The position numbers and the translations under genes are program-made. The notes beneath the pieces were generated by a model. The model was given only the letters and a program-made list of their open reading frames with translations, had not been told where the DNA came from and made no database searches. A stretch of DNA of 60,165 nucleotides, taken from IMG/VR virus record IMGVR_UViG_3300018405_000021, positions 1 through 60,165 of that record, one strand, 5' to 3'. Within the stretch, counting starts at the first letter, position 1; each line of letters begins with the position of its first letter. The stretch is from a virus. Lineage: Duplodnaviria; Caudoviricetes. Of the stretch, positions 22,317 to 38,790 are shown in pieces.

Positions 22317-22922
22317 GTGCCCGCCACCCCAGTTTACACGCAGTCACAGCTAAATGCGCATAAAGCTGCACAAGAGCGAGCCAGACGGCGAAACGAAGCC
22401 GCTAGGCGCGCAGCTAACGGGAATGTGGAAGCGCGCGTCAGTGATGCAGATAAGCCGAAAGAGTACGCATTCGACTTTGCATCATTCGCAACGTCGGTAT
22501 CATTCTCAATCAAGCCGCATAGCGACTATACGCCATACGGGATAGGCTTCGCTGGTGGGCAGAGTGAATGCCTGCGGACGATGGATCAGATTGCTAGGGG
22601 CGTTCTCAAGGCATATCCAGGCATTACGCTGGCTGACATCAAGGGGAGCCGCAGGACGGCAAATATCTATTGGCCGCGCCACCATATCGTTCATTCCATT
22701 CTAGCCGAGCGCCCAGACATTTCATCAACGATGCTCGGTAGGTGGATGGGGGGGCGCGATCACACGTCAATTCTGAATTCCAAGCGTCAATGGGAAAACA
22801 AACTGCAAAGGGAAAAGGACAATGCAAGCAAATCAAAACATGACGCCGACGCAAGCCGCACTTTACGAGGCGGCAAGGGCGAGAGCCGAAAGAAAGGCGA
22901 GACAGGTTCAATGGATCAATGA
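22317..22922 (+). CDS. DnaA C-terminal (domain IV)-like HTH protein
   Basis: ITLADIKGSRRT...PRH...GRWMGGRDHTSILNS. Confidence 0.75.
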   Translation: MPATPVYTQSQLNAHKAAQERARRRNEAARRAANGNVEARVSDADKPKEYAFDFASFATSVSFSIKPHSDYTPYGIGFAGGQSECLRTMDQIARGVLKAYPGITLADIKGSRRTANIYWPRHHIVHSILAERPDISSTMLGRWMGGRDHTSILNSKRQWENKLQREKDNASKSKHDADASRTLRGGKGESRKKGETGSMDQ

Positions 22923-23358
22923 AGAAAAATCACGGGGACGTGTCGTGATGATGGTTCCGTGGGCGGCGCGCGTAAAGCCGGAATGGGAGCAGTGTGAAAC
23001 GCATTTCGACCAGCATGTGAAAGACAGCGGCCAGTTTATCGGGGCATTCTGCGACTGGCGAAAGTGGCTTTACCATAAGGCTGAGAAATACGGCATCACG
23101 TTTGACGATGTGGTCAGCAATAGCCGAAATGAAGCGGTTTTGTTCGCCCGCGAGGAGCTTATTTTCGCGCTCAAAAACGCCAGCGGCTTGAGCATGGACA
23201 ACATCGGGAAAATAATTGGCCGGCATCACTCCGCTGCGATTTATATGGTAAACAAGGCCAAGGCGCGACGTGGCGACGTTAAGGCTCAAGCCTTTATCGA
23301 CAAGAAGCGCATCCGTTCGCTTTCATATCACCACGAGAAGAAATCACACCGGGACTAG
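22822..23358 (+). CDS. Second DnaA C-terminal-like HTH protein
   Basis: YGITFDDVVSNSR...AR...LSMDNIGKIIGRHHSAAIY. Confidence 0.7.
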   Translation: MQANQNMTPTQAALYEAARARAERKARQVQWINEEKSRGRVVMMVPWAARVKPEWEQCETHFDQHVKDSGQFIGAFCDWRKWLYHKAEKYGITFDDVVSNSRNEAVLFAREELIFALKNASGLSMDNIGKIIGRHHSAAIYMVNKAKARRGDVKAQAFIDKKRIRSLSYHHEKKSHRD

Positions 23359-23382: not shown

Positions 23383-23790
23383 GTGACTGACCACAAGGTG
23401 AATATCTATCGCGCCGCCCGTGACTGCGGCGTTACGCTTCTCGCGGGGCACCTGCATAGCCCCGCCAGCCGCAAGCCCCGCTTCTGCTTCTGCAAGCCCA
23501 CGGTGAGAGACGTAGGAAAGGCCCATGGCGAAGCTCATCTTAAACTCGTTCTGGCGCTCCTGACCGGGACGGATGCGAACGCCATGCACCTGTATGCAGA
23601 TGTTATCTGGGCCACGTCTGAAGTCCTTGCGCATAATGAATGGCTGATGAAATCCCCGACATTGCTTTCCGATTTTGACTGCATCGATATCGGGGCCTTG
23701 CGGGCAACGGCCCACGGCATGGCCTGCGGCATCCCTAAGGCTTACGTGATCCGCGTCCTTCTCCTCCAACGCCTTTCTGAGAGATCGTGA
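23383..23790 (+). CDS. Hypothetical protein
   Basis: GGAG RBS, GTG start. Confidence 0.7.
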   Translation: MTDHKVNIYRAARDCGVTLLAGHLHSPASRKPRFCFCKPTVRDVGKAHGEAHLKLVLALLTGTDANAMHLYADVIWATSEVLAHNEWLMKSPTLLSDFDCIDIGALRATAHGMACGIPKAYVIRVLLLQRLSERS

Positions 23791-24437
23791 TGACAGAATA
23801 CGCCGCATGGCATTGGAAGGCCGTCGAAGGCCGTGTGATCGAAATGGCAGACACGTTGCGCAAGCTTCCCGCAGACAAGGGGCCTAAGGCATATGGAAGC
23901 GCTATGCCGGAGGTGGTGCGCCGCTACGATGAAGAGAATGCGGAGCCGATCCGCGTTCCCCGCGCGCCGACCGGGGCCGCAATCGACCGTATGAATGAGT
24001 GCTTCGGGTGGATCAATAGCTATTTGGGAGAGCCGGAGCGCAAGCTTTTATACGCTTGGTCATGGGTAAAAGTCCGTCGCGGTATGAAAATCGCAGGACT
24101 TGCGTCAGAAAATGACATGAACGAGCGATTTTTGAGGCGGGAGATTACGGCCTATTGTCAACATATTGCAGACAATTTGAACCGATTGTTCATTTTACGG
24201 CTTGACAACGGGGATTTACCTTCGTCCGAAAGTGCGGCAGAAAACGATCAATCACATGTAACGTCCAACATTTGCGCGAAACGAGGTCGCAGCAATCATT
24301 GGATGGCAAGTGATGCAAAACCGGTGCATGACCCACAAAGTCCTGAGCTGGTCTCCCTCCGCGAAAGACTGACGGAGGGGAATGCGCGCCGTGAGGCGCT
24401 ACGCCGCGAAAAGCTGGCGCGTGAGGGGCTACTATGA
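23787..24437 (+). CDS. Putative late-transcription regulator (DUF6362/Q-like)
   Basis: VEGRVIEMADTLRKLP...PTGAAIDRMNECFGW; positioned before the late region. Confidence 0.6.
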   Translation: MMTEYAAWHWKAVEGRVIEMADTLRKLPADKGPKAYGSAMPEVVRRYDEENAEPIRVPRAPTGAAIDRMNECFGWINSYLGEPERKLLYAWSWVKVRRGMKIAGLASENDMNERFLRREITAYCQHIADNLNRLFILRLDNGDLPSSESAAENDQSHVTSNICAKRGRSNHWMASDAKPVHDPQSPELVSLRERLTEGNARREALRREKLAREGLL

Positions 24438-24628
24438 CGGAAGCCAGAGAAGCCCCGGAAGAGTGCGAGCCGCAACCCGTTGGATATGTCCGCGAAGGCA
24501 CGATATGCGGTGGACCGATCTGGATATTGTTCGACGGTGACGGTCGGGAGGTTCTGGTGACGGACAACCGGTCTTCCGTATTTTTTCACGCGGCGGCTAT
24601 AGACATGAAGATCGTGTTGCGGCATTGA
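24434..24628 (+). CDS. Hypothetical protein
   Basis: ATGA overlap. Confidence 0.5.
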   Translation: MTEAREAPEECEPQPVGYVREGTICGGPIWILFDGDGREVLVTDNRSSVFFHAAAIDMKIVLRH

Positions 24629-24639
24629 TTTGGTTAAGC

Positions 24640-25367
24640 CGATTTTTGGCGATAAGAACACTCTGCATGTGCCGATAGTCCTGGGTTCAGCCAGAAAGTC
24701 CGTTGAAAGACACGGATAGGTCATGCAGAGGACAAGTCCTGTCTGGCTTCCATGATGGAATTTCAGGCAGGCACCAATTCGCTCGATGGGGCGGAAAACT
24801 CTGCACCCGAAAGCTTTGGTTTTGGTGTGGTTTTAAGATTCGCCAAGGTCGCTACGGCAGAGTTTGTGAAAGACCAATAGATGCCGTTGGGGAAGCGATA
24901 CAGGTCAGTATTTGCGCGGTTCGCTACCGTCCTTAGAATACCTGCCCCACCAATTCGCCCGAACGGGCAACGAAATCGCTCGGGAGCACGGTTGTGCGTG
25001 AGGCGCTTTAGCCTCCCCGGCGTCAAGATCGGGAAGCGGCCAGCCTTAGCGGGCGAGCTTCAGGCACGATAAAGACGAGCGCCAACGTCTGCCTCTTCCC
25101 GACCAAATGCGAGACGAACGGCCTGTCTGAGTTTCGATATCGGAATGCCGATAACGCTAAGGTGCAGCATCAGGCCGACTGATCACCGGCTAGATACGAT
25201 GAACAGCCAGAAATGGGCGAGTGCTGGGCTTGCAATCCAGCGCGAGTGGGGTTGAAGCGTTCGACTGATAATCGGAAATGCTCGCAATAGCCGGTAGGCT
25301 GCGCCCAACGTTCATCGGCCAATAGTCCGGTTATTTATCCAGCCGGTGTCAACCCCGGCCATCGCAT
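24640..25367 (+). ncRNA. Candidate large structured non-coding RNA
   Basis: About 730 nt with no credible ORF and more than 15 complementary segments, including crossing pairings; followed by a terminator-like hairpin. Confidence 0.6.
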
Positions 25368-25370
25368 AAC

Positions 25371-25404
25371 AGGCCATCGTCCTTAACCGGGCGGTGGCCT
25401 TTGT
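25371..25404 (+). terminator. Terminator-like hairpin
   Basis: AGGCCATCGTCC-TTAACC-GGGCGGTGGCCT-TTGT; short U tract. Confidence 0.5.
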
Positions 25405-25436
25405 CGTTTCAACGCCACCCGAAGAGGAAGACGGCT

Positions 25437-25868
25437 ATGTCGAAAGACGAACAGCAAATCGAATCCGAAATCCAGCGCAAGGGCCTGAACGCGCCCCGGC
25501 TCACGCCCGAGCATATTGATGCCCAAATCGTGTCTGAGGACTACCATGTGTTCCCCGGCACGACGCTGACCGTCTGCGCACTCACCCTTCGTAACGGCTT
25601 TCAGGTCACGGGCGAGAGCGCCGCAGCTTCGGTAGAGAATTTCAACCAAGAAATCGGCCGCAAGATTGCCCGCGACAACGCCCGCAACAAAATCTGGATG
25701 CTCGAAGGCTATCTGCTTCGCGACTTCCTTCATCAGATGACGCCCGAGCGTATCCAGCGGCGTTCGCAGCTCTACCGCGATGCCTGCCACATGAACGGCG
25801 TTGACCAGTTGCCAGACGATACAGTCGTGCAGTTGGTTCTGGATGACGCCCGTCGCTACCCTGTCTAG
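25437..25868 (+). CDS. Phage Gp49/66-family protein
   Basis: APRLTPEHID...TVCALTLRNGFQVTGESA...NFNQEIGRKIA...IWMLEGYLL. Confidence 0.85.
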   Translation: MSKDEQQIESEIQRKGLNAPRLTPEHIDAQIVSEDYHVFPGTTLTVCALTLRNGFQVTGESAAASVENFNQEIGRKIARDNARNKIWMLEGYLLRDFLHQMTPERIQRRSQLYRDACHMNGVDQLPDDTVVQLVLDDARRYPV

Positions 25869-26976: not shown

Positions 26977-27441
26977 ATGCCAGTCCTAAAAAACGCAAGA
27001 CATGAGGCTTTCGCGCAGGCCCTCGCTACAGGGATGACGCGAGATGCGGCCTATGCGGCAGCAGGTTATAAGCCCGATAGACAGAATGCTTTCAGGCTGA
27101 CGACAATTGACGCCGTAATGACGCGCGTGATCGAATTGAGCGATAGAGCGGCCCAAAAAGCCGAATGGACCGCCGCTGATAGGCTGTCTTCTCTTAAAAG
27201 GATTTCGGAAGCGGCTGAGAAAAATGACCCTCGCGTTTCGGTTTCAGCCATCGCAGAGGCTAACCGAATGCAGGGCACCCATGCCCCTACCAAGTCGGAA
27301 ATCACCGGCAAGGGTGGCGGGCCTATCGCAACGATTGACGTTACCCGTCTCAAGGGGATGACCAACGAGGAGCTAGAAGTCCTTGAACGTGCCCTTGTCC
27401 AGATTGGAATTGCTGAACGCGATACGGGCGGAGAAGAATAG
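26977..27441 (+). CDS. terS: Terminase small subunit
   Basis: LKNARHEAFAQALATG...AYAAAGY; EITGKGGGPI; directly upstream of terL. Confidence 0.85.
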   Translation: MPVLKNARHEAFAQALATGMTRDAAYAAAGYKPDRQNAFRLTTIDAVMTRVIELSDRAAQKAEWTAADRLSSLKRISEAAEKNDPRVSVSAIAEANRMQGTHAPTKSEITGKGGGPIATIDVTRLKGMTNEELEVLERALVQIGIAERDTGGEE

Positions 27442-29890
27442 CCGTAAGACGCAAGAGGATTTGGTCGAGGAGCGGAAAGAGCTTCTCTCATCTCACCTAG
27501 CGTTCACACGGCGGTTCTTTGTCGAGAAGGAAGGCCAACCGTTTTCCGTCGCTGCCTTCCATGAGGTGATGTGTTGGGTTCTCGACCGCGTTTACGCCGG
27601 AGAGATAAAGCGGCTCATCATCAACATTCCGCCAGGGTTTGGGAAGGCGATTGATTGCGATACGCCTATGTTGACGCCTTCGGGGTGGGTAAGAGCCGGA
27701 GATATCCGCAACGGCGATATGCTGCTGGGGTCTGCCGGACAATGGACAGAGGTGACCGGCGTATTCCCGCAAGGGGTTATTCCTGCGTTCACGGTCACTT
27801 TTTCCGATAGATCATCTATTGTGGCGTGTTCTGAGCATCGTTGGGCCGCCCGTCTTCGCGATGGCAGCAATAATTGGCATGCGCCGTGGCAGGTAAAGAC
27901 GACTGATGAACTAGCCCGCGATCTTAGAGAGGCTGATGGGCGTAAGAAGTGGCGCATTCCTGTCTTATCTGACACTCGGTCGGAAGATATTGACCTGCCG
28001 ATTGATCCGTACCTATTCGGGTGCTGGCTTGGCGATGGCCATAGTTATCAGGCCGCGATTACGACGATGGACGCCGATATCATCACGGCATTCTCTGAAT
28101 TTTCCCCTGTTGCCCAAAAACACCAAAACGCGGGACGTGCGACAACATACTCTCTTCGCAACCGTTTCGTGACTAGGCTTCGTGCGCTTGGTGTTTTGGG
28201 CAACAAACACATTCCCAATGTTTATATGCTTGCCAGCCATCGCCAGAGGGTTGCCCTTCTGCAAGGCATATGTGACACGGACGGAACTGTGAATAGGAAA
28301 TCTGGGGGGCAGAGTGTCACGTTATCGTGCAAGGCTCTCTCAGATGACGTTAGATCACTCATCAACAGTATTGGTGGCGTATGGCGGGGTTATGAGCGCA
28401 AGGCTGGCAAGAAGATAGCGTATACGACGATGCTATCCCTTCCCGATGGCGTGTCTGCGTTTAGGCTTCCGCGTAAGAGTATGCGGGTCAATCCTCGGAA
28501 GGCATGCAACATGCCGCGTCGGTTCGTGGACACGGTAGCCAAGACCAGCGACCGTGAAATGGTGTGTTTCACGGTTGATGCAGATGACCATCTCTTCTGC
28601 GCCGGTCGCGACCTTGTCGTAACGCACAATACTGAGCTTGCGGTGATCAACTTCATCGCCCACGGGTTCGCTATCAATCCACGCGCTCGGTTTATCCACG
28701 CGAGTTATGCCGAACCGCTGGCGCTGGATAACTCGACCAAAGTGAAGGATATCATCACCCTTCCTGGATATCAGGCGCTTTGGCCGGTCACTATGCGTAG
28801 CGACACTAATGCTAAGGGCTTATGGCGCACTACGGCAGGCGGTCATCTTCGTGCGTCGGCTGCTGGTATGCCTATCACCGGGTTTCGTGCCGGTATCCTT
28901 GAGGAGAGCGGCTTTACTGGGGCGCTTGTGATCGATGACCCATTGAAGCCTGACGATGCTTCGTCGGAAAAGCTCCGCAAGTTCATCAATGCCCGATGGG
29001 AAAACACATTCCGTTCGCGTCTCGCGCATGAAGACGTTCCGGTTATCGTGATCATGCAGCGCCTGCATGTCGATGACTTCGCGGCGCATCTCATGCAGAA
29101 CTCCGGCGAGCAATGGCACCTGCTGAGCCTTCCTGTCCTGATACAGGGAGAGGTGGAAGCGCCGGGTGGCAATGTGACCGTCATCCCCCATGGCCTTCCA
29201 GATGGACCGCTGTGGGAAGCGAAGCACAACGAGGAGCAGATCAAGGTTTTGCAGTTATCCCCCACGGTTTATGCGGGGCAGTACGCGCAGAACCCGATTG
29301 TTGCCGGTGGTAATCTGTTCAAGACCGATTGGCTTGTTGATTACGACGATCTTCCGCCTCTCAAATGGCGGGCGGTTTACGCGGATACAGCGCAGAAGAC
29401 GAAAGAGCGGAACGACTACACCGTCTTCGAGCACTGGGGCGCAGGCCATGACGGCAGGGCATACCTGATTGATCTTGTTCGGGGGCGGTTTGAAGCGCCG
29501 GAACTTGAAAGCACGGCGCTGGCGCTATGGGCCAAGGCCAAGCTTATGGACCCGCAGCGCTACGGAATGCTCCGCAAGATGAGCATTGAAGACAAGGTTT
29601 CCGGCACGGGGCTAATCCAGTCCCTCCGGCGCAAGGCTATCCCTGTCGTCGCGGTACAGCGCGACAAGGACAAGTACACCCGTGCGCTTGACGTTGTGCC
29701 GCTTGTCGCGTCCGGGCTCGTCTGTGTGCCAAAGATCGCCCCTTGGAGGCAGGCATTCTCGTCTGAATATGCGGCGTTCCCAGATGGTTCATTTGACGAC
29801 CAGATGGACCCGTTCATGGATGCCGTGACGGAAATGTGTGGCGGGAAGTTCTCGCTTTCGATTAGCAGAGAAGCACTCAAGAAAGCATGA
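27383..29890 (+). CDS. terL: Terminase large subunit, intein-containing
   Basis: RLIINIPPGFGK|T Walker A, IDDP Walker B, IMQRLHVDD, GQYAQNP, DTA...DY, DDQMD nuclease motifs. Confidence 0.95.
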   Translation: MNVPLSRLELLNAIRAEKNSRKTQEDLVEERKELLSSHLAFTRRFFVEKEGQPFSVAAFHEVMCWVLDRVYAGEIKRLIINIPPGFGKAIDCDTPMLTPSGWVRAGDIRNGDMLLGSAGQWTEVTGVFPQGVIPAFTVTFSDRSSIVACSEHRWAARLRDGSNNWHAPWQVKTTDELARDLREADGRKKWRIPVLSDTRSEDIDLPIDPYLFGCWLGDGHSYQAAITTMDADIITAFSEFSPVAQKHQNAGRATTYSLRNRFVTRLRALGVLGNKHIPNVYMLASHRQRVALLQGICDTDGTVNRKSGGQSVTLSCKALSDDVRSLINSIGGVWRGYERKAGKKIAYTTMLSLPDGVSAFRLPRKSMRVNPRKACNMPRRFVDTVAKTSDREMVCFTVDADDHLFCAGRDLVVTHNTELAVINFIAHGFAINPRARFIHASYAEPLALDNSTKVKDIITLPGYQALWPVTMRSDTNAKGLWRTTAGGHLRASAAGMPITGFRAGILEESGFTGALVIDDPLKPDDASSEKLRKFINARWENTFRSRLAHEDVPVIVIMQRLHVDDFAAHLMQNSGEQWHLLSLPVLIQGEVEAPGGNVTVIPHGLPDGPLWEAKHNEEQIKVLQLSPTVYAGQYAQNPIVAGGNLFKTDWLVDYDDLPPLKWRAVYADTAQKTKERNDYTVFEHWGAGHDGRAYLIDLVRGRFEAPELESTALALWAKAKLMDPQRYGMLRKMSIEDKVSGTGLIQSLRRKAIPVVAVQRDKDKYTRALDVVPLVASGLVCVPKIAPWRQAFSSEYAAFPDGSFDDQMDPFMDAVTEMCGGKFSLSISREALKKA
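27647..28630 (+). mobile_element. Intein (328 aa) with LAGLIDADG homing endonuclease; Ala1, class 3 WCT signature
   Basis: Begins AIDCDTPML after GFGK and ends VVTHN before T; EHRW (block B), VCFTV (block F); GCWLGDG and QGICDTDG. Confidence 0.93.
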
Positions 29891-32272: not shown

Positions 32273-34627
32273 ATGCCCGCAGTTTCAGAAAAGCAAGAGC
32301 GGTTCATGAATGCCGTGGCGCATAACCCGGAATTCGCCGCCAAGGTCGATGTGCCGCAAAGCGTCGGGAAAGAGTTCGTCGCCAAGGACGAAGTGAAATC
32401 AGCCGCTGGCGTCCTGTTCGTCGCACCTGACGGCGACGTGCTTTTACTCCTCCGCTCCCCGAATGAAGAGAACTTCGCATCGCATTGGGCGCTACCCGGT
32501 GGTGGAGCGGACGCCGGAGAAACGCCAGAGCAGGCCGCTAGGCGCGAAGTCAGTGAAGAGATAGGCAATGTGCCATGCGATGGCATGACGCCACTGTGTG
32601 AGCGCGTAACGCCGAAAGGAATGGTGTTTACAACGTTCATCTGCCCGGTAGCGGAGAAGTTCGTCCCGACGCTAAATGAAGAGCATTCCGGTTACGCATG
32701 GGTTCCGGTTGATAAGCCCCTCGCCCCGATCCACCCCGCCGTTGCAGATGTCCTGTCTGGGCCGTTCATGGGATGGCTGAGCCGGAAGGGTGGTATCGCC
32801 ACGGATGTGGATTTCGAAGAAAGCAAACACAAAAGGGACGATGGCGGCAAGTTCGCGTCATCCAGTGGGGGTGAGGCTTCAAAGCCGAAAACTGCGAATG
32901 CCGTCCATGAAGGCGCTGACGAAATCGTCAAGAAGCTAAGGGCGGCTGGCATCAGCGCATCCGAGCCGGATCATTCGATAAACCGCCATGGCGAAGCGTC
33001 GTCTTATTTCCGCGTCCCCGGCATTGGTGAGGTCAGATACTCCGACCACTCCAAAAATGAAAACTACGATATGTCTAACCTGTCTCTCGGCAAGACTGAC
33101 GATATCGATGATCTCGTGAGATATATCCAGAAGGTCAAGGAAAAAGCCGCCGCCGCATCTGAGGCCCGCAAAGCGGAGAAGGCAGCGGCAGCGGTTGAGG
33201 TCGAAAAAAAAGAGGCCGATAAACGCGCCATCCGTGAGCAGGACGCCAAGAATGCCGAGATCAAGCGCCAATTCATGATCGATAACGGCCTTCAAGACGC
33301 AAGCGATACCCAGAAGAAAAAAGCATGGGAGGCGCATAAAAAAGCCATGCGCGAAAAAGGCATCGCAAAAGACGATAGTTCACATGAGGTCATAGCCTTC
33401 GATAAAGCGTCCGTCCGGTCCTACGATCAAGACGGGCGAATGAAGGTCGAGCGGTCCACGATCAGCAAGGCGATTGTCTCGCCGTACATCGGTAGGGAAA
33501 TCGTCGGATGGAAGGCGTTGGGCCTAGACCCGAACAAGACATATCGCCTGTTGCGCGACCCGGAAGAACTCAAGGCCGCATCCGACACGTTCAATAATCT
33601 CCCCGTCCTGTCCGAACACGTCGCTGTTTCGGCAAGCGCGCCGCGCAAGGATTTGGTTATCGGGTCGACCGGAACGGACGCCGCGTTTGACGGCAGTCAC
33701 CTGACAAACAGTCTCGTGTTCTGGGATGGTTCCGCCATCCAAGACATCGAAGACGAAAAGGCGAAGGAACTGTCCTGCGCCTATCACTACCGCCCCGACA
33801 TGACGCCAGGAACCTACGAGGGCGAGGCTTATGACGGGGTGATGAGAGAGATCAAAGGCAACCACGTTGCCCTTGTCCCGCGCGGAAGGGTTGGCCCGGA
33901 TGCGTATGTAGCAGACAGCGCCCCTGTGGAGCTGGTCGGGGATGCCGCACCCCTCAATAGCGGCGCTCGAAACAGCCAGCAGGAGAAGAGAACTATGGCT
34001 CACAAAATCCCGAAGCGGGATAAGGTCACGGTTGTGAAGGCGCTGAATGCCATCAAGCCCGATCTCGCGCAGGACGCCGACATCAGCGACATCATCGCTC
34101 TTGTCGAAAAGCTTGAGAATGAAGGCCCGGAAGAAACCGTGGCCGTCACGGAAGACGCTGCCGACATCCACGAATTCCTCAAGGCCAAGCTTTCGGATGA
34201 AGACTACGCCGCCGCGTGTGAGCTTCTGAAGCCTGCCGCTGACGAGGAAGAAGAAGCCCCGGCCATCAAGCCGGATGAGGAAGTTGTCTCCAAGCCCGCC
34301 ATGGATGCCGCAATCGCCGCAGCTACGGCCAAGGCGACGAACGACGCTCTGTCCGCTGCAAAGGCCATCCGTGAAGCCGAGCGCGCTGTACGCCCGTATG
34401 TGGGCGAAATGAGCATGGCCCACGACAGCGCCGACGCTGTTTACCGTTCGGCCTTCGACATTCTCGGCGTGAAGCACAAGGATGTTCACCCGTCTGCATT
34501 CCCGGCGATCCTCGCCGCGCAGACCACGGCATCCCACAAGAAACCGGCACCGATGGCCATGGATGCGAAGGCGAAGGAAAACTTCTCCTCGCGCTTCCCG
34601 GACGCCAGCCGCATCGCAATCAAGTAA
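32273..34627 (+). CDS. Head polyprotein: Nudix + unknown domain + DUF2213-like prohead protease + scaffold
   Basis: Nudix box PGGGADAGETPEQAARREVSEEIG; KELSCAY...NHVALVPRGRVG; helical acidic C-terminus. Confidence 0.88.
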   Translation: MPAVSEKQERFMNAVAHNPEFAAKVDVPQSVGKEFVAKDEVKSAAGVLFVAPDGDVLLLLRSPNEENFASHWALPGGGADAGETPEQAARREVSEEIGNVPCDGMTPLCERVTPKGMVFTTFICPVAEKFVPTLNEEHSGYAWVPVDKPLAPIHPAVADVLSGPFMGWLSRKGGIATDVDFEESKHKRDDGGKFASSSGGEASKPKTANAVHEGADEIVKKLRAAGISASEPDHSINRHGEASSYFRVPGIGEVRYSDHSKNENYDMSNLSLGKTDDIDDLVRYIQKVKEKAAAASEARKAEKAAAAVEVEKKEADKRAIREQDAKNAEIKRQFMIDNGLQDASDTQKKKAWEAHKKAMREKGIAKDDSSHEVIAFDKASVRSYDQDGRMKVERSTISKAIVSPYIGREIVGWKALGLDPNKTYRLLRDPEELKAASDTFNNLPVLSEHVAVSASAPRKDLVIGSTGTDAAFDGSHLTNSLVFWDGSAIQDIEDEKAKELSCAYHYRPDMTPGTYEGEAYDGVMREIKGNHVALVPRGRVGPDAYVADSAPVELVGDAAPLNSGARNSQQEKRTMAHKIPKRDKVTVVKALNAIKPDLAQDADISDIIALVEKLENEGPEETVAVTEDAADIHEFLKAKLSDEDYAAACELLKPAADEEEEAPAIKPDEEVVSKPAMDAAIAAATAKATNDALSAAKAIREAERAVRPYVGEMSMAHDSADAVYRSAFDILGVKHKDVHPSAFPAILAAQTTASHKKPAPMAMDAKAKENFSSRFPDASRIAIK
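33995..34627 (+). CDS. Probable nested in-frame scaffolding protein
   Basis: AGGAG at 33981 followed by an in-frame ATG (MAHKIPK) just after the protease domain. Confidence 0.55.
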   Translation: MAHKIPKRDKVTVVKALNAIKPDLAQDADISDIIALVEKLENEGPEETVAVTEDAADIHEFLKAKLSDEDYAAACELLKPAADEEEEAPAIKPDEEVVSKPAMDAAIAAATAKATNDALSAAKAIREAERAVRPYVGEMSMAHDSADAVYRSAFDILGVKHKDVHPSAFPAILAAQTTASHKKPAPMAMDAKAKENFSSRFPDASRIAIK

Positions 34628-37895: not shown

Positions 37896-38410
37896 TGGCT
37901 ATCAAAGTCGGAGTGACGGTCACGCGGGACGCAACGGCTGACATTCTCCGGGCCGTCAAGGCGCTGGTGAAGCGTGAAGCGCTTGTCGGTATCCCCGCCG
38001 ACAACGCCAGCCGCGAACCGGATGAGGATGAGAAAGTCCCGCTTAACAACGCGGAAATCGGCTATCTCATGGAAAACGGTGTGCCGGAGAAGAATATCCC
38101 GGCGCGTCCGTTCCTCAACCCAGGCATCGCCAACGCGAAAGACAAGATCGTCCAAGTGATGGAGGCGGGAGCGAAAAAGGCTCTGTCTGGCGACAGTGAA
38201 GCCGCAGACCGCACGCTAAACACGGTCGGGATTATCGGCATGAACGCGGTTCAGGCCAAGATTACCGATGGACCGTTTGAGCCGCTTAGTGAAGTGACGC
38301 TTGCCAAACGTCGCGCCAAGGGGCGCACGGGTGAGAAGCCTTTGCTGGATACGGGCGCGCTTAGGCGCAGCATTTCCTATGCCGTCAGGCCGAAAGGTGA
38401 GAAGTCCTAG
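37895..38410 (+). CDS. Neck/virion morphogenesis protein
   Basis: VGIP...ENG...IPARPFL...KPLLDTGALRRSISY. Confidence 0.8.
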   Translation: MAIKVGVTVTRDATADILRAVKALVKREALVGIPADNASREPDEDEKVPLNNAEIGYLMENGVPEKNIPARPFLNPGIANAKDKIVQVMEAGAKKALSGDSEAADRTLNTVGIIGMNAVQAKITDGPFEPLSEVTLAKRRAKGRTGEKPLLDTGALRRSISYAVRPKGEKS

Positions 38411-38412
38411 CC

Positions 38413-38790
38413 ATGGCCGAACTTGATGTTACCGAACTGCTTTATGATCCCGATTTTAGCGACACGTTTACGGTCCAGCGGGACACCGAAACAGTCGGTA
38501 GCAATGGCCGCGCCACGGTTGCCACGCAAACGTTTTCTGATTTGATCGGCGTCCTGACGGCTGGGCAAGGGTCTATTCTGAAACAGTTCCCCGAATTGAC
38601 GCGCGTGGAAGGGGCCATCCTCATCCACTGCATGTTCGAACTGAGGCCGGAGACTGACGCCACAAAGGCGGATCGCATCCTGTGGCGCGGCAACACGTAC
38701 CGCGTGACGATGGTCAACAATTGGATGAACTTCGGGGGCGGGTTCGTTTCTGCCGTCGCAACGCTCATTGAGCTTGTCGAGGATGCATAA
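38413..38790 (+). CDS. Head closure/adaptor protein
   Basis: LDVTELLYDPDF...ADRILWRGNTYRV; synteny. Confidence 0.7.
   Translation: MAELDVTELLYDPDFSDTFTVQRDTETVGSNGRATVATQTFSDLIGVLTAGQGSILKQFPELTRVEGAILIHCMFELRPETDATKADRILWRGNTYRVTMVNNWMNFGGGFVSAVATLIELVEDA

Follow-up and report, generated by a model that had tools for sequence, protein, structure and literature searches.

The sequence considered here is the viral (Caudoviricetes) record IMGVR_UViG_3300018405_000021, which belongs to the linear class, has a completeness estimate of 79% and carries most of its genes on the + strand; its whole stretch of 60,165 nt is called the window below. Between the stop of a 64-aa open reading frame (ORF) and the ATG of a gp49/Sf6-gp66-family gene it contains a gap of 808 nt (24629-25436), and in this gap lies a 155-nt core domain which we are confident belongs to a previously uncatalogued phage RNA family with seven helices, two of them pseudoknots, and highly conserved junction and loop nucleotides. 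Upstream of the gap are genes for a DNA methyltransferase, two proteins with a DnaA C-terminal domain, a phrog_22699 protein, a DUF6362 protein and the 64-aa ORF. The downstream order is the gp49/Sf6-gp66 gene, small ORFs, terS, TerL, portal, a Mu-F-like head protein, protease and major head protein. With replication genes upstream and packaging genes downstream, the gap sits exactly between both, and this gene order agrees with an earlier description made from the letters alone (the sequence-only reading), which had placed a non-coding RNA at the head of the late region. Its claim of some 770 nt without a credible ORF also holds: the longest ORFs in the gap are 87, 77 and 63 aa, none of the seven tested gave a Pfam match at E<=1, and the codon-usage score over 24600-25400 stays at background in all six frames, compared with about 0.2 per codon in the flanking genes. 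The gap is real and non-coding. The genes that frame it are as follows.

23787-24437, + strand: gene of the DUF6362 protein, 216 aa (Pfam DUF6362, 1.4e-07; phrog_6836), two genes 5' of the RNA
24434-24628: 64-aa ORF immediately 5' of the gap, with a weak DUF1150 match
25437-25868, + strand: gene of the gp49/Sf6 gp66 family (Pfam PF13876, 1.1e-33), the first past the terminator
26977-27441: terS, downstream of the gap
27383-29890: TerL, downstream of the gap

Relatives were sought in loci around gp49 homologues (80 viral, 33 genomic and 80 metagenomic) and around DUF6362 homologues (11). The gap had no blastn match among 50,697 GenBank phage records, and blastn and nhmmer against first 91 and then about 205 related loci returned only L004 (to 25165-25307) and, weakly, L143 (to 24829-24954). 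A first pattern taken from the match between the window and L143 gave eight IMG/VR contigs, and their alignment was conserved well past the seed. The covariance model R1 was built from nine sequences with five nested helices and neither pseudoknot. Another pattern, taken independently from a different part of the domain, led to 36 loci, 11 of which are chance matches; over 38 sources R1 recognised 27 matches, of which 26 are distinct, with scores of 69.5-158 bits. The pattern GTGAAAGACCNNNAGATGC returned 42 loci, in which nhmmer recognised only contigs already known, the rest being chance matches. Searched by blastn against GenBank phages, a typical member found one record, that of the cultured Pseudanabaena phage Pam5, whose element (record positions 38346-38552) scores 112.7 bits (E 7.7e-23) and lies within an unannotated gap. 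The family is composed of the window and 27 other phage records, Pam5 among them. R1 had no match in five gp49-homologue-bearing bacterial genomes or in 151 genomes from the order that includes G001, and the core pattern was not found in 401 genomes of its class; these are samples taken with strict filters and are no proof of absence.

In the window R1 gives a single full-length match (model positions 1-146), on which its five helices and both pseudoknots could be located.

24797-24951, + strand: conserved core domain, 155 nt, R1 107.8 bits, E 2.5e-20, no open frame
24801-24806/24825-24830, + strand: helix P1
24814-24819/24843-24848, + strand: pseudoknot PK1
24850-24853/24894-24897, + strand: helix P3
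24855-24859/24882-24886, + strand: helix P4
24864-24866/24875-24877, + strand: helix P5, with the loop UGAAAGAC at 24867-24874
24889-24892/24945-24948, + strand: pseudoknot PK2
24901-24904/24941-24944, + strand: helix P7
inside 24910-24935, + strand: P6, a variable hairpin

The fold is carried by compensatory changes. Alignment A7 comprises 26 distinct rows, to which the two pseudoknots were added by hand. Of its 780 cells 94.7% are in standard pairs; sliding the 3' partners by one to three columns lowers this to 32.7-41.6%. Both sides have changed at 21 of the 31 pairs (117 cells), and in 500 shuffles the observed values were never attained, whichever of five measures is taken. The fitting of A7 relied on the five nested helices and so favours them. 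The pseudoknots are absent from the model; 92.3% of cells are paired in PK1, with double changes at four pairs, and 93.3% in PK2, with double changes at three. P7 is paired in 100% of cells and covaries at three of its four pairs, and the first nine sequences give the same covariation picture as all 26. Thus the conserved, pseudoknotted RNA that had been proposed for this place is borne out by the core, and the check named with that proposal, compensatory changes among homologues, has given a positive answer. In the window P1 (CUGCAC/GUGUGG) and PK1 (CUUUGG/CCAAGG) have letters unlike those of most members and pair one register off the R1 alignment; these differences are themselves compensatory.

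Some G-U pairs are compatible with the + strand only, for example the U-G at one position of P3 in 20 of 26 members. No reading frame is open in more than one of nine members, and one frame has a stop within the invariant UGAAAG in all nine. These observations bear on the idea that the gap is an element acting as DNA (a replication origin, a cos or pac site, a promoter array) or a decayed protein gene. The two DnaA-C-terminal-domain genes 1.3-2.3 kb upstream, short direct repeats and the nearby terS would fit such an element, but it does not account for compensatory changes in seven helices, one-strand G-U pairs and two pseudoknots, while a decayed gene is contradicted by stops in every frame and by the absence of codon bias. 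We regard this explanation as largely refuted and hardly credible.

Many unpaired nucleotides are invariant or nearly so in the 26 members: GGCAGAGU, AGAUGC, CGAAAC, CAGUA, GAAU and GCCC. P5 has the 8-nt loop UGAAAGAC in ten members and in many others is a longer hairpin that keeps ..AGAGAC.., and P6 is a short variable hairpin in most. Such conservation, together with the compact double pseudoknot and the place in a leader, could be attributed to a ligand-sensing riboswitch or to a self-cleaving or processing ribozyme which would time or process the late transcript. No likeness to any Rfam ribozyme or riboswitch was found, neither a cleavage site nor a ligand can be inferred, and across members variable inserts separate the terminator from the core, over 130-450 nt, which is unlike a usual expression platform. 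We therefore consider this unlikely.

The sequence-only reading had described the gap as one large, ornate RNA of about 770 nt, possibly of the GOLLD or ROOL kind and otherwise of a new class. The helices it listed, the repeated TGAAAGAC (24704-24711 and 24867-24874) and the terminator-like hairpin are all found in the sequence, among them CTCTGCATG/CATGCAGAG at 24661/24722 and CGGGAAG/CTTCCCG, which is contained in an imperfect 23-nt inverted repeat (25029-25051/25080-25102). The helix AAACTCTGC/GCAGAGTTT is likewise present, at 24796/24857, but it overlaps and excludes the conserved P1, P4 and P5, and its 5' arm is not preserved in the other members. The whole gap does fold better than shuffled controls on the + strand (z -3.5; 20 shuffles for each strand), but the - strand does so even more (z -4.3), so that folding energy alone decides nothing and the decisive support is comparative, i.e. 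the compensatory changes in the family. Of the sub-pieces, 24655-24735 alone is unusual (z -3.6, with one of 200 shuffles as good), and the others have z -0.3 to -1.6.

In the Rfam 15 cmscan of the whole window none of 4227 families matched at its gathering score, and E-value mode, with a limit of E 10 over 24300-25700, yielded nothing but a DUF3800-VI match below threshold and a snoRNA match due to chance. GOLLD and ROOL were absent from both searches, and the conservation over a full 500-800 nt was not found either, since only about 155-200 nt are common to the 27 other members. A single giant RNA is thus quite unlikely. It is favoured by the folding of the whole gap on the + strand and by modules which lie on one strand with one possible start and one terminator, so that in this phage there may be one transcript of 640-780 nt. 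The energy argument is weakened by the - strand. Against a giant RNA there is no Rfam match, the family shares only the 155-nt core and short flanking motifs, other parts are missing or replaced in relatives, and the IMG/VR searches gave no homologues of the full 770 nt. The proposals of a GOLLD/ROOL-like RNA and of a single conserved 770-nt RNA have accordingly fallen, and that of a new class stands for the core, which has no entry in Rfam 15, and not for a giant. Text searches of the literature found no description of the family, and a search with sequence words gave primer matches only. Fremin et al. 2023 (PMC10690425) report 8,495 candidate structured RNAs of 29-151 nt from IMG/VR. We call the family uncatalogued rather than unpublished because the supplements of one large IMG/VR RNA catalogue stand outside the comparison.

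Around the core the gap is built of modules that are exchanged among relatives.

24629-24775, + strand: hairpins specific to the window, namely a three-way junction (24661-24730; loop UGAAAGAC) and then a hairpin (24736-24771)
24776-24796, + strand: 5' edge of the cassette, with the first copy of the AATTCG-hairpin motif
24948-24975, + strand: second copy of the AATTCG-hairpin-AACGA motif (GCCC-GAAC-GGGC)
24976-25023, + strand: small three-way junction, DUF3800-VI-like, with GCAC/GTGC and GAGGC/GCCTC inside CGCTCGGG/CCCGGCG
25025-25106, + strand: long imperfect hairpin GATCGGGAAG...CTTCCCGACC, an inverted repeat
25165-25307, + strand: module C, a cloverleaf-like fold of about 95 nt closed by GGGCG/CGCCC, with a hairpin before it
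25362-25411, + strand: terminator-like hairpin with its stem at 25371-25400 followed by TTGTCGTTTC, dG about -21 kcal/mol, 3' edge of the cassette

The first of these modules (24629-24775) has no homologue in about 205 related loci and is outside the part common with a contig of run X5; as a possible second copy of the core, the window-specific module A was rejected, as R1 does not recognise it. The AATTCG-hairpin-AACGA motif flanks the core on both sides as a direct repeat (24772-24792 and 24948-24968). It is also present in L143, L207, L210 and L212, and twice in L214, and the stem of its second copy has compensatory changes in L214, L143, L210 and L212. In L207 the match spans 24778-24797, and the ends of the hairpin 25025-25106 are the same there, together with an inner CCAGCC.TAGCG (compared by eye). 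The terminator-like hairpin had been noticed from the letters and is confirmed. Hairpins of this kind 3' of the core in the window, L210 and L212, which are otherwise different, have a common loop, CCUUAACC, which is CCUAACCC in L211 (seen by eye). In family members the unit from core to terminator is about 330-640 nt long.

Parts of the stretch occur in 24 sequencing runs from 20 studies, and two of these runs may be the source of this DNA. Four runs were compared with the window, all as contigs, which therefore give no strand, ends or levels, and stretches without contig cover carry no information. The contig of run X5 (35,142 nt, from another sample) matches 24776-24971 with one difference, 25095-25112 and 25362-25411, and differs from the window 5' of 24776 and 3' of 25411. 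These limits indicate a bounded cassette, of 636 nt in the window and 511 nt in the X5 contig, which on its 3' side stops where the T tract of the terminator stops. A contig of the metatranscriptomic run X22 equals 24815-24950 with three differences and has adapter-like letters on both sides, which hints at a short RNA-derived insert, or possibly DNA carry-over. Identical contigs cover 25128-25277 (run X10) and 25154-25370 (run X4), while the gp49 pieces in these two runs differ from the window at 10-15 of about 65 positions; this indicates that the RNA modules are better conserved than the neighboring gene.

An association with tRNA loci, also suggested earlier, is real in that relatives bear tRNA genes in the same gap. 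In L002 and L003, the closest gp49 relatives (87-92% identity), the gap is replaced by a tRNA-Met and small ORFs, and tRNA genes are in the corresponding gap of L002, L004, L007, L094, L097, L100, L143 and others; tRNA genes at any place occur in 19 of 206 loci. Right after the core of L143 (2285-2359) ARAGORN predicts a tRNA with a two-letter undetermined anticodon, which scores 42.9 bits against Rfam tRNA. The window itself has no tRNA or tmRNA gene by ARAGORN and no match to the Rfam tRNA clan to E 10 over 24300-25700. Module C is 77% identical over 136 nt to L004 2537-2672, which stands directly after tRNA-Gln and tRNA-Pro genes, without the core. The consensus predicted from it and L004 together is a four-way junction like a cloverleaf; of the 32 pairs predicted, 5 have changed on both sides, and two loops of the module, CUUGCAA and CUGAUAA, resemble anticodon loops. 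It is no tRNA by ARAGORN or Rfam. Two exact patterns searched in IMG/VR led to the L004 contig only, and with two sequences known there are too few to prove the fold. In Pam5, L265 and L211 the variable P6 contains an insertion of 72-79 nt, which the P6 stem GGCAG/CUGCC closes. It comprises a hairpin like a T arm (stem of 5 bp; loops UUCAAGU, UUCGAGC and GUCGAUG) and a GCUCAG..AGAGC like a D arm. Judged from motif and fold, this insertion is probably a tRNA-like body whose acceptor end is closed and which is entered through the anticodon stem.

These tRNA-like parts lead to the chief rival of the reading that we prefer, namely that the gap produces one or more stable RNAs which act in trans, end at their own terminator and serve as a scaffold or decoy tied to tRNA biology, the late genes being expressed independently or by leak-through. 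Such an RNA could, for instance, act as a mimic and keep tRNA-directed host enzymes or defence nucleases occupied, or it could belong to a Y-RNA-like particle, and several could be cut from one precursor. Consistent with it are the P6 bodies in Pam5, L265 and L211, module C with its two anticodon-like 7-nt loops and its place after tRNA genes in L004, the two tRNA genes right after the core in L143, the terminator-bounded cassette that moves as a unit between unrelated flanks, and the anti-defence gene Tad5 two genes upstream in L208. On the other hand, the core has no tRNA-like part in at least 22 of 26 members. A Ro (TROVE) gene is absent from all five records searched, no Rfam Y RNA (YrlA), tRNA or tmRNA match was found, and the strict position before packaging genes would be left unexplained. 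We consider it possible, with clear reservations.

That position was examined in 11-16 kb around seven members, and in 12 records there was enough DNA or annotation to judge it (the window, L257-L259, L261-L263, L299, L285, L265, L280 and Pam5). In all 12 the element precedes terS/TerL/portal or head genes and shares their strand. TerL and portal follow at 0.3-3 kb in L259, L261, L262 and L263, portal in L257, the major head gene in L258, and terS in the 3-kb loci L299, L285, L265 and L280; on the circular map of Pam5 the element is about 1 kb before terS/TerL/portal. Upstream are replication genes (initiator, primosomal protein, helicase, RNase H-like, methyltransferase). A place that is always just upstream of terS/TerL/portal is also what could be expected of a packaging RNA that works with terminase and portal in the manner of the phi29 pRNA. 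There is no other pointer to this, nor any likeness to pRNA in sequence or structure (no Rfam match), and pRNA is known only from phi29-like phages, so we find it very improbable.

The genes just upstream of the RNA vary. A NusG paralogue (PHROG 'transcription antiterminator') stands there in 3 of 26 members, L278, L282 and L283, with an NGN domain in each and a KOW domain also in L278. A protein of the DUF6362/phrog_6836/phrog_37864 type is upstream in seven (the window, L143, L265, L212, L291, L296 and L295), phrog_21451 in three and phrog_15385 in three, and ten have no family assigned. DUF6362 and phrog_37864 are linked through L265, which matches both, and through an hhalign result that this shared row inflates. 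The DUF6362 protein is a candidate late-transcription regulator, judged from its predicted structure: the AlphaFold model is helical (pLDDT 71.6), and Foldseek compares it to Q21 with probability 0.25-0.51 and E above 1. The profile of the DUF6362 family had no match in the PDB at E<=1. Homologues of this protein in Rhizobium, Neorhizobium and Shinella genomes make the earlier label of a Rhizobiales phage plausible for the record, though not for the RNA family, which is also found in a cyanophage.

Several neighboring genes are worth recording in their own right. In the window two adjacent overlapping ORFs, 22317-22922 and 22822-23358, each encode a DnaA C-terminal helix-turn-helix domain (4e-08 and 4.8e-10). 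The TerL ORF (27383-29890) is 835 aa long and has a weak LAGLIDADG_3 match (1e-4) between its N- and C-terminal terminase matches, which suggests, from sequence, an intein or a homing-endonuclease insertion. At 32273-34627 a protein of 784 aa has an N-terminal NUDIX domain (1.5e-20) fused to a DUF2213/head-maturation-protease region. In L286 a 408-aa protein (63-1289) upstream of the core has an intein splicing domain (4.9e-12). In the provirus record L208 the Tad5 gene, for a type I Thoeris inhibitor, is at 420-779 (Pfam 1.5e-46), and a homologue of the window's 64-aa ORF (44% over 45 aa) is downstream of the RNA core at 1709-1843. Between the RNA and terS, L300 3240-3869 (Pam5_67) is annotated as phosphoribosylaminoimidazole synthetase, which is unusual near a packaging module.

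The RNA has a conserved + strand fold and a place ahead of the packaging genes, and in the window it is part of a cassette bounded by a strong terminator. Our preferred reading, which we put forward tentatively and somewhat short of even confidence, is that the RNA serves as leader to the late operon and controls passage through the terminator, which stands 26 nt ahead of the first late gene. The ATG at 25437 follows so closely that there is no room for a promoter between the two. Further points in favour are the genes next to the RNA that encode NusG paralogues or DUF6362-type proteins, the terminator-like sites at 65 nt or less from the next ORF in L212, L214, L296, L283 and L208 as well as in the window, the X22 contig as a hint of expression, and the precedent of LoaP. 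The non-coding transcription unit would be on the + strand, roughly 24776-25411, and would contain the core, the exchangeable modules and the intrinsic terminator. It would be transcribed directly after the gene of a late-transcription regulator, and the core would fold on the nascent transcript and render RNA polymerase able to pass the leader terminator, either alone, as HK022 put does, or helped by an elongation factor of the phage or the host, as in LoaP/dfn and lambda Q/pR'-tR'. Packaging and morphogenesis genes would then be expressed only upon read-through of the terminator, with the accessory modules, tRNA-like in several members, carried on the same abundant transcript. Alternatively, different regulators could act at a promoter and the RNA could do something else.

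Several observations weigh against the leader reading. The upstream proteins fall into at least four families without relation to each other (hhalign E 0.13-0.82), and these do not track the RNA subtypes; a specific protein-RNA pair is therefore unlikely, and the variety speaks rather for a mechanism based on RNA alone or on a host factor, or for the absence of any link. Likeness of the DUF6362 model to known regulators stays below the level that convinces for helical proteins, both for sigma region 4 (Z 5-6.8 for residues ~57-140) and for Q21 (6jnx_P; Z 5.9 over 102 residues). In a crude scan only 17 of 26 members had a terminator-like site within 750 nt. The site stands immediately ahead of the next ORF in six or seven of them, among which are the window, L212, L214, L296, L283 and L208 at 65 nt or less, and a sigma-70-like promoter was seen upstream in one of 26. 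Conserved unpaired stretches of such length would be suitable for a ribozyme, riboswitch or protein scaffold too. The contig matches show neither strand nor ends, and DNA may contaminate an RNA library.

The late-gene switch of tailed phages outside the lambdoid group is mostly unknown, and here a strongly covarying, conserved RNA domain is placed exactly between a candidate regulator gene and the packaging operon. Its occurrence in phages of very different hosts, with Pam5 being culturable, gives a concrete and testable handle on the switch. The compact double-pseudoknot fold with its many invariant unpaired nucleotides also makes the core a good candidate for structural work, and the tRNA-like insertions and exchangeable modules bear on how phage non-coding RNAs get assembled from parts.

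The known systems resemble this RNA to different degrees. GOLLD and ROOL are phage-borne, large and often near tRNA genes. The RNA of the window differs from them in having no match to their covariance models, in a much smaller core and in a remainder that is modular and not conserved. With DUF3800-VI (RF02915) the segment 24976-25023 shares the small three-way junction, at a sub-threshold score (27.5 bits, gathering score 35, E 0.0044), and a DUF3800 gene (PF12686) was absent from the 60-kb record in a search that did match the control genomes. The bacterial Y RNA YrlA has a tRNA-like domain with a closed acceptor end, joined through the anticodon stem. P6 of Pam5, L265 and L211 may be similar to it in its T- and D-arm look-alikes, closed acceptor end and fused anticodon stem; the difference is that this insertion is missing from most members and from the core of the window.

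The order in the late region of lambda, a regulator gene, a short non-coding transcript and an intrinsic terminator directly before the late genes, is like that proposed for the window, where the intrinsic terminator 25371-25410 stands between leader and ATG 25437 as in a Q-type late leader. Lambda Q is loaded via a DNA site and a sigma-dependent pause, and in some lambdoid phages tRNA genes are located within the late leader. The 6S leader of lambda has no conserved complex fold, in contrast to the double pseudoknot here, and the upstream proteins here are of several unrelated families. According to PMC12691694, read-through of the leader terminator by the NusG paralogue LoaP requires an RNA hairpin of the dfn leader, and a NusG paralogue beside a long leader with an RNA element and an intrinsic terminator is what the three members with NusG upstream resemble. 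The LoaP element is, however, one small UNCG hairpin, whereas the domain of this family is pseudoknotted and 145-200 nt long; moreover 23 of the 26 members, the window included, are without a NusG paralogue at that place. By analogy the RNA may also be compared to HK022 put, a cis-acting, folded nascent RNA before terminators that needs no dedicated phage protein. Antitermination by put is processive and RNA-only. Its two stem-loops (about 70 nt) are located downstream of early promoters and have no likeness to the core in sequence or structure. A put-like RNA with no dedicated protein would account for the variety of upstream proteins. The RNA could be a new cis-acting class which would reprogram RNA polymerase unaided, either an RNA-only processive antiterminator far larger than put or a new ribozyme or riboswitch that gates the late genes; this class would be common to phages of Alphaproteobacteria and cyanobacteria, and some members would have captured a circularly permuted tRNA-like body. 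This is a proposal that we offer with considerable doubt.

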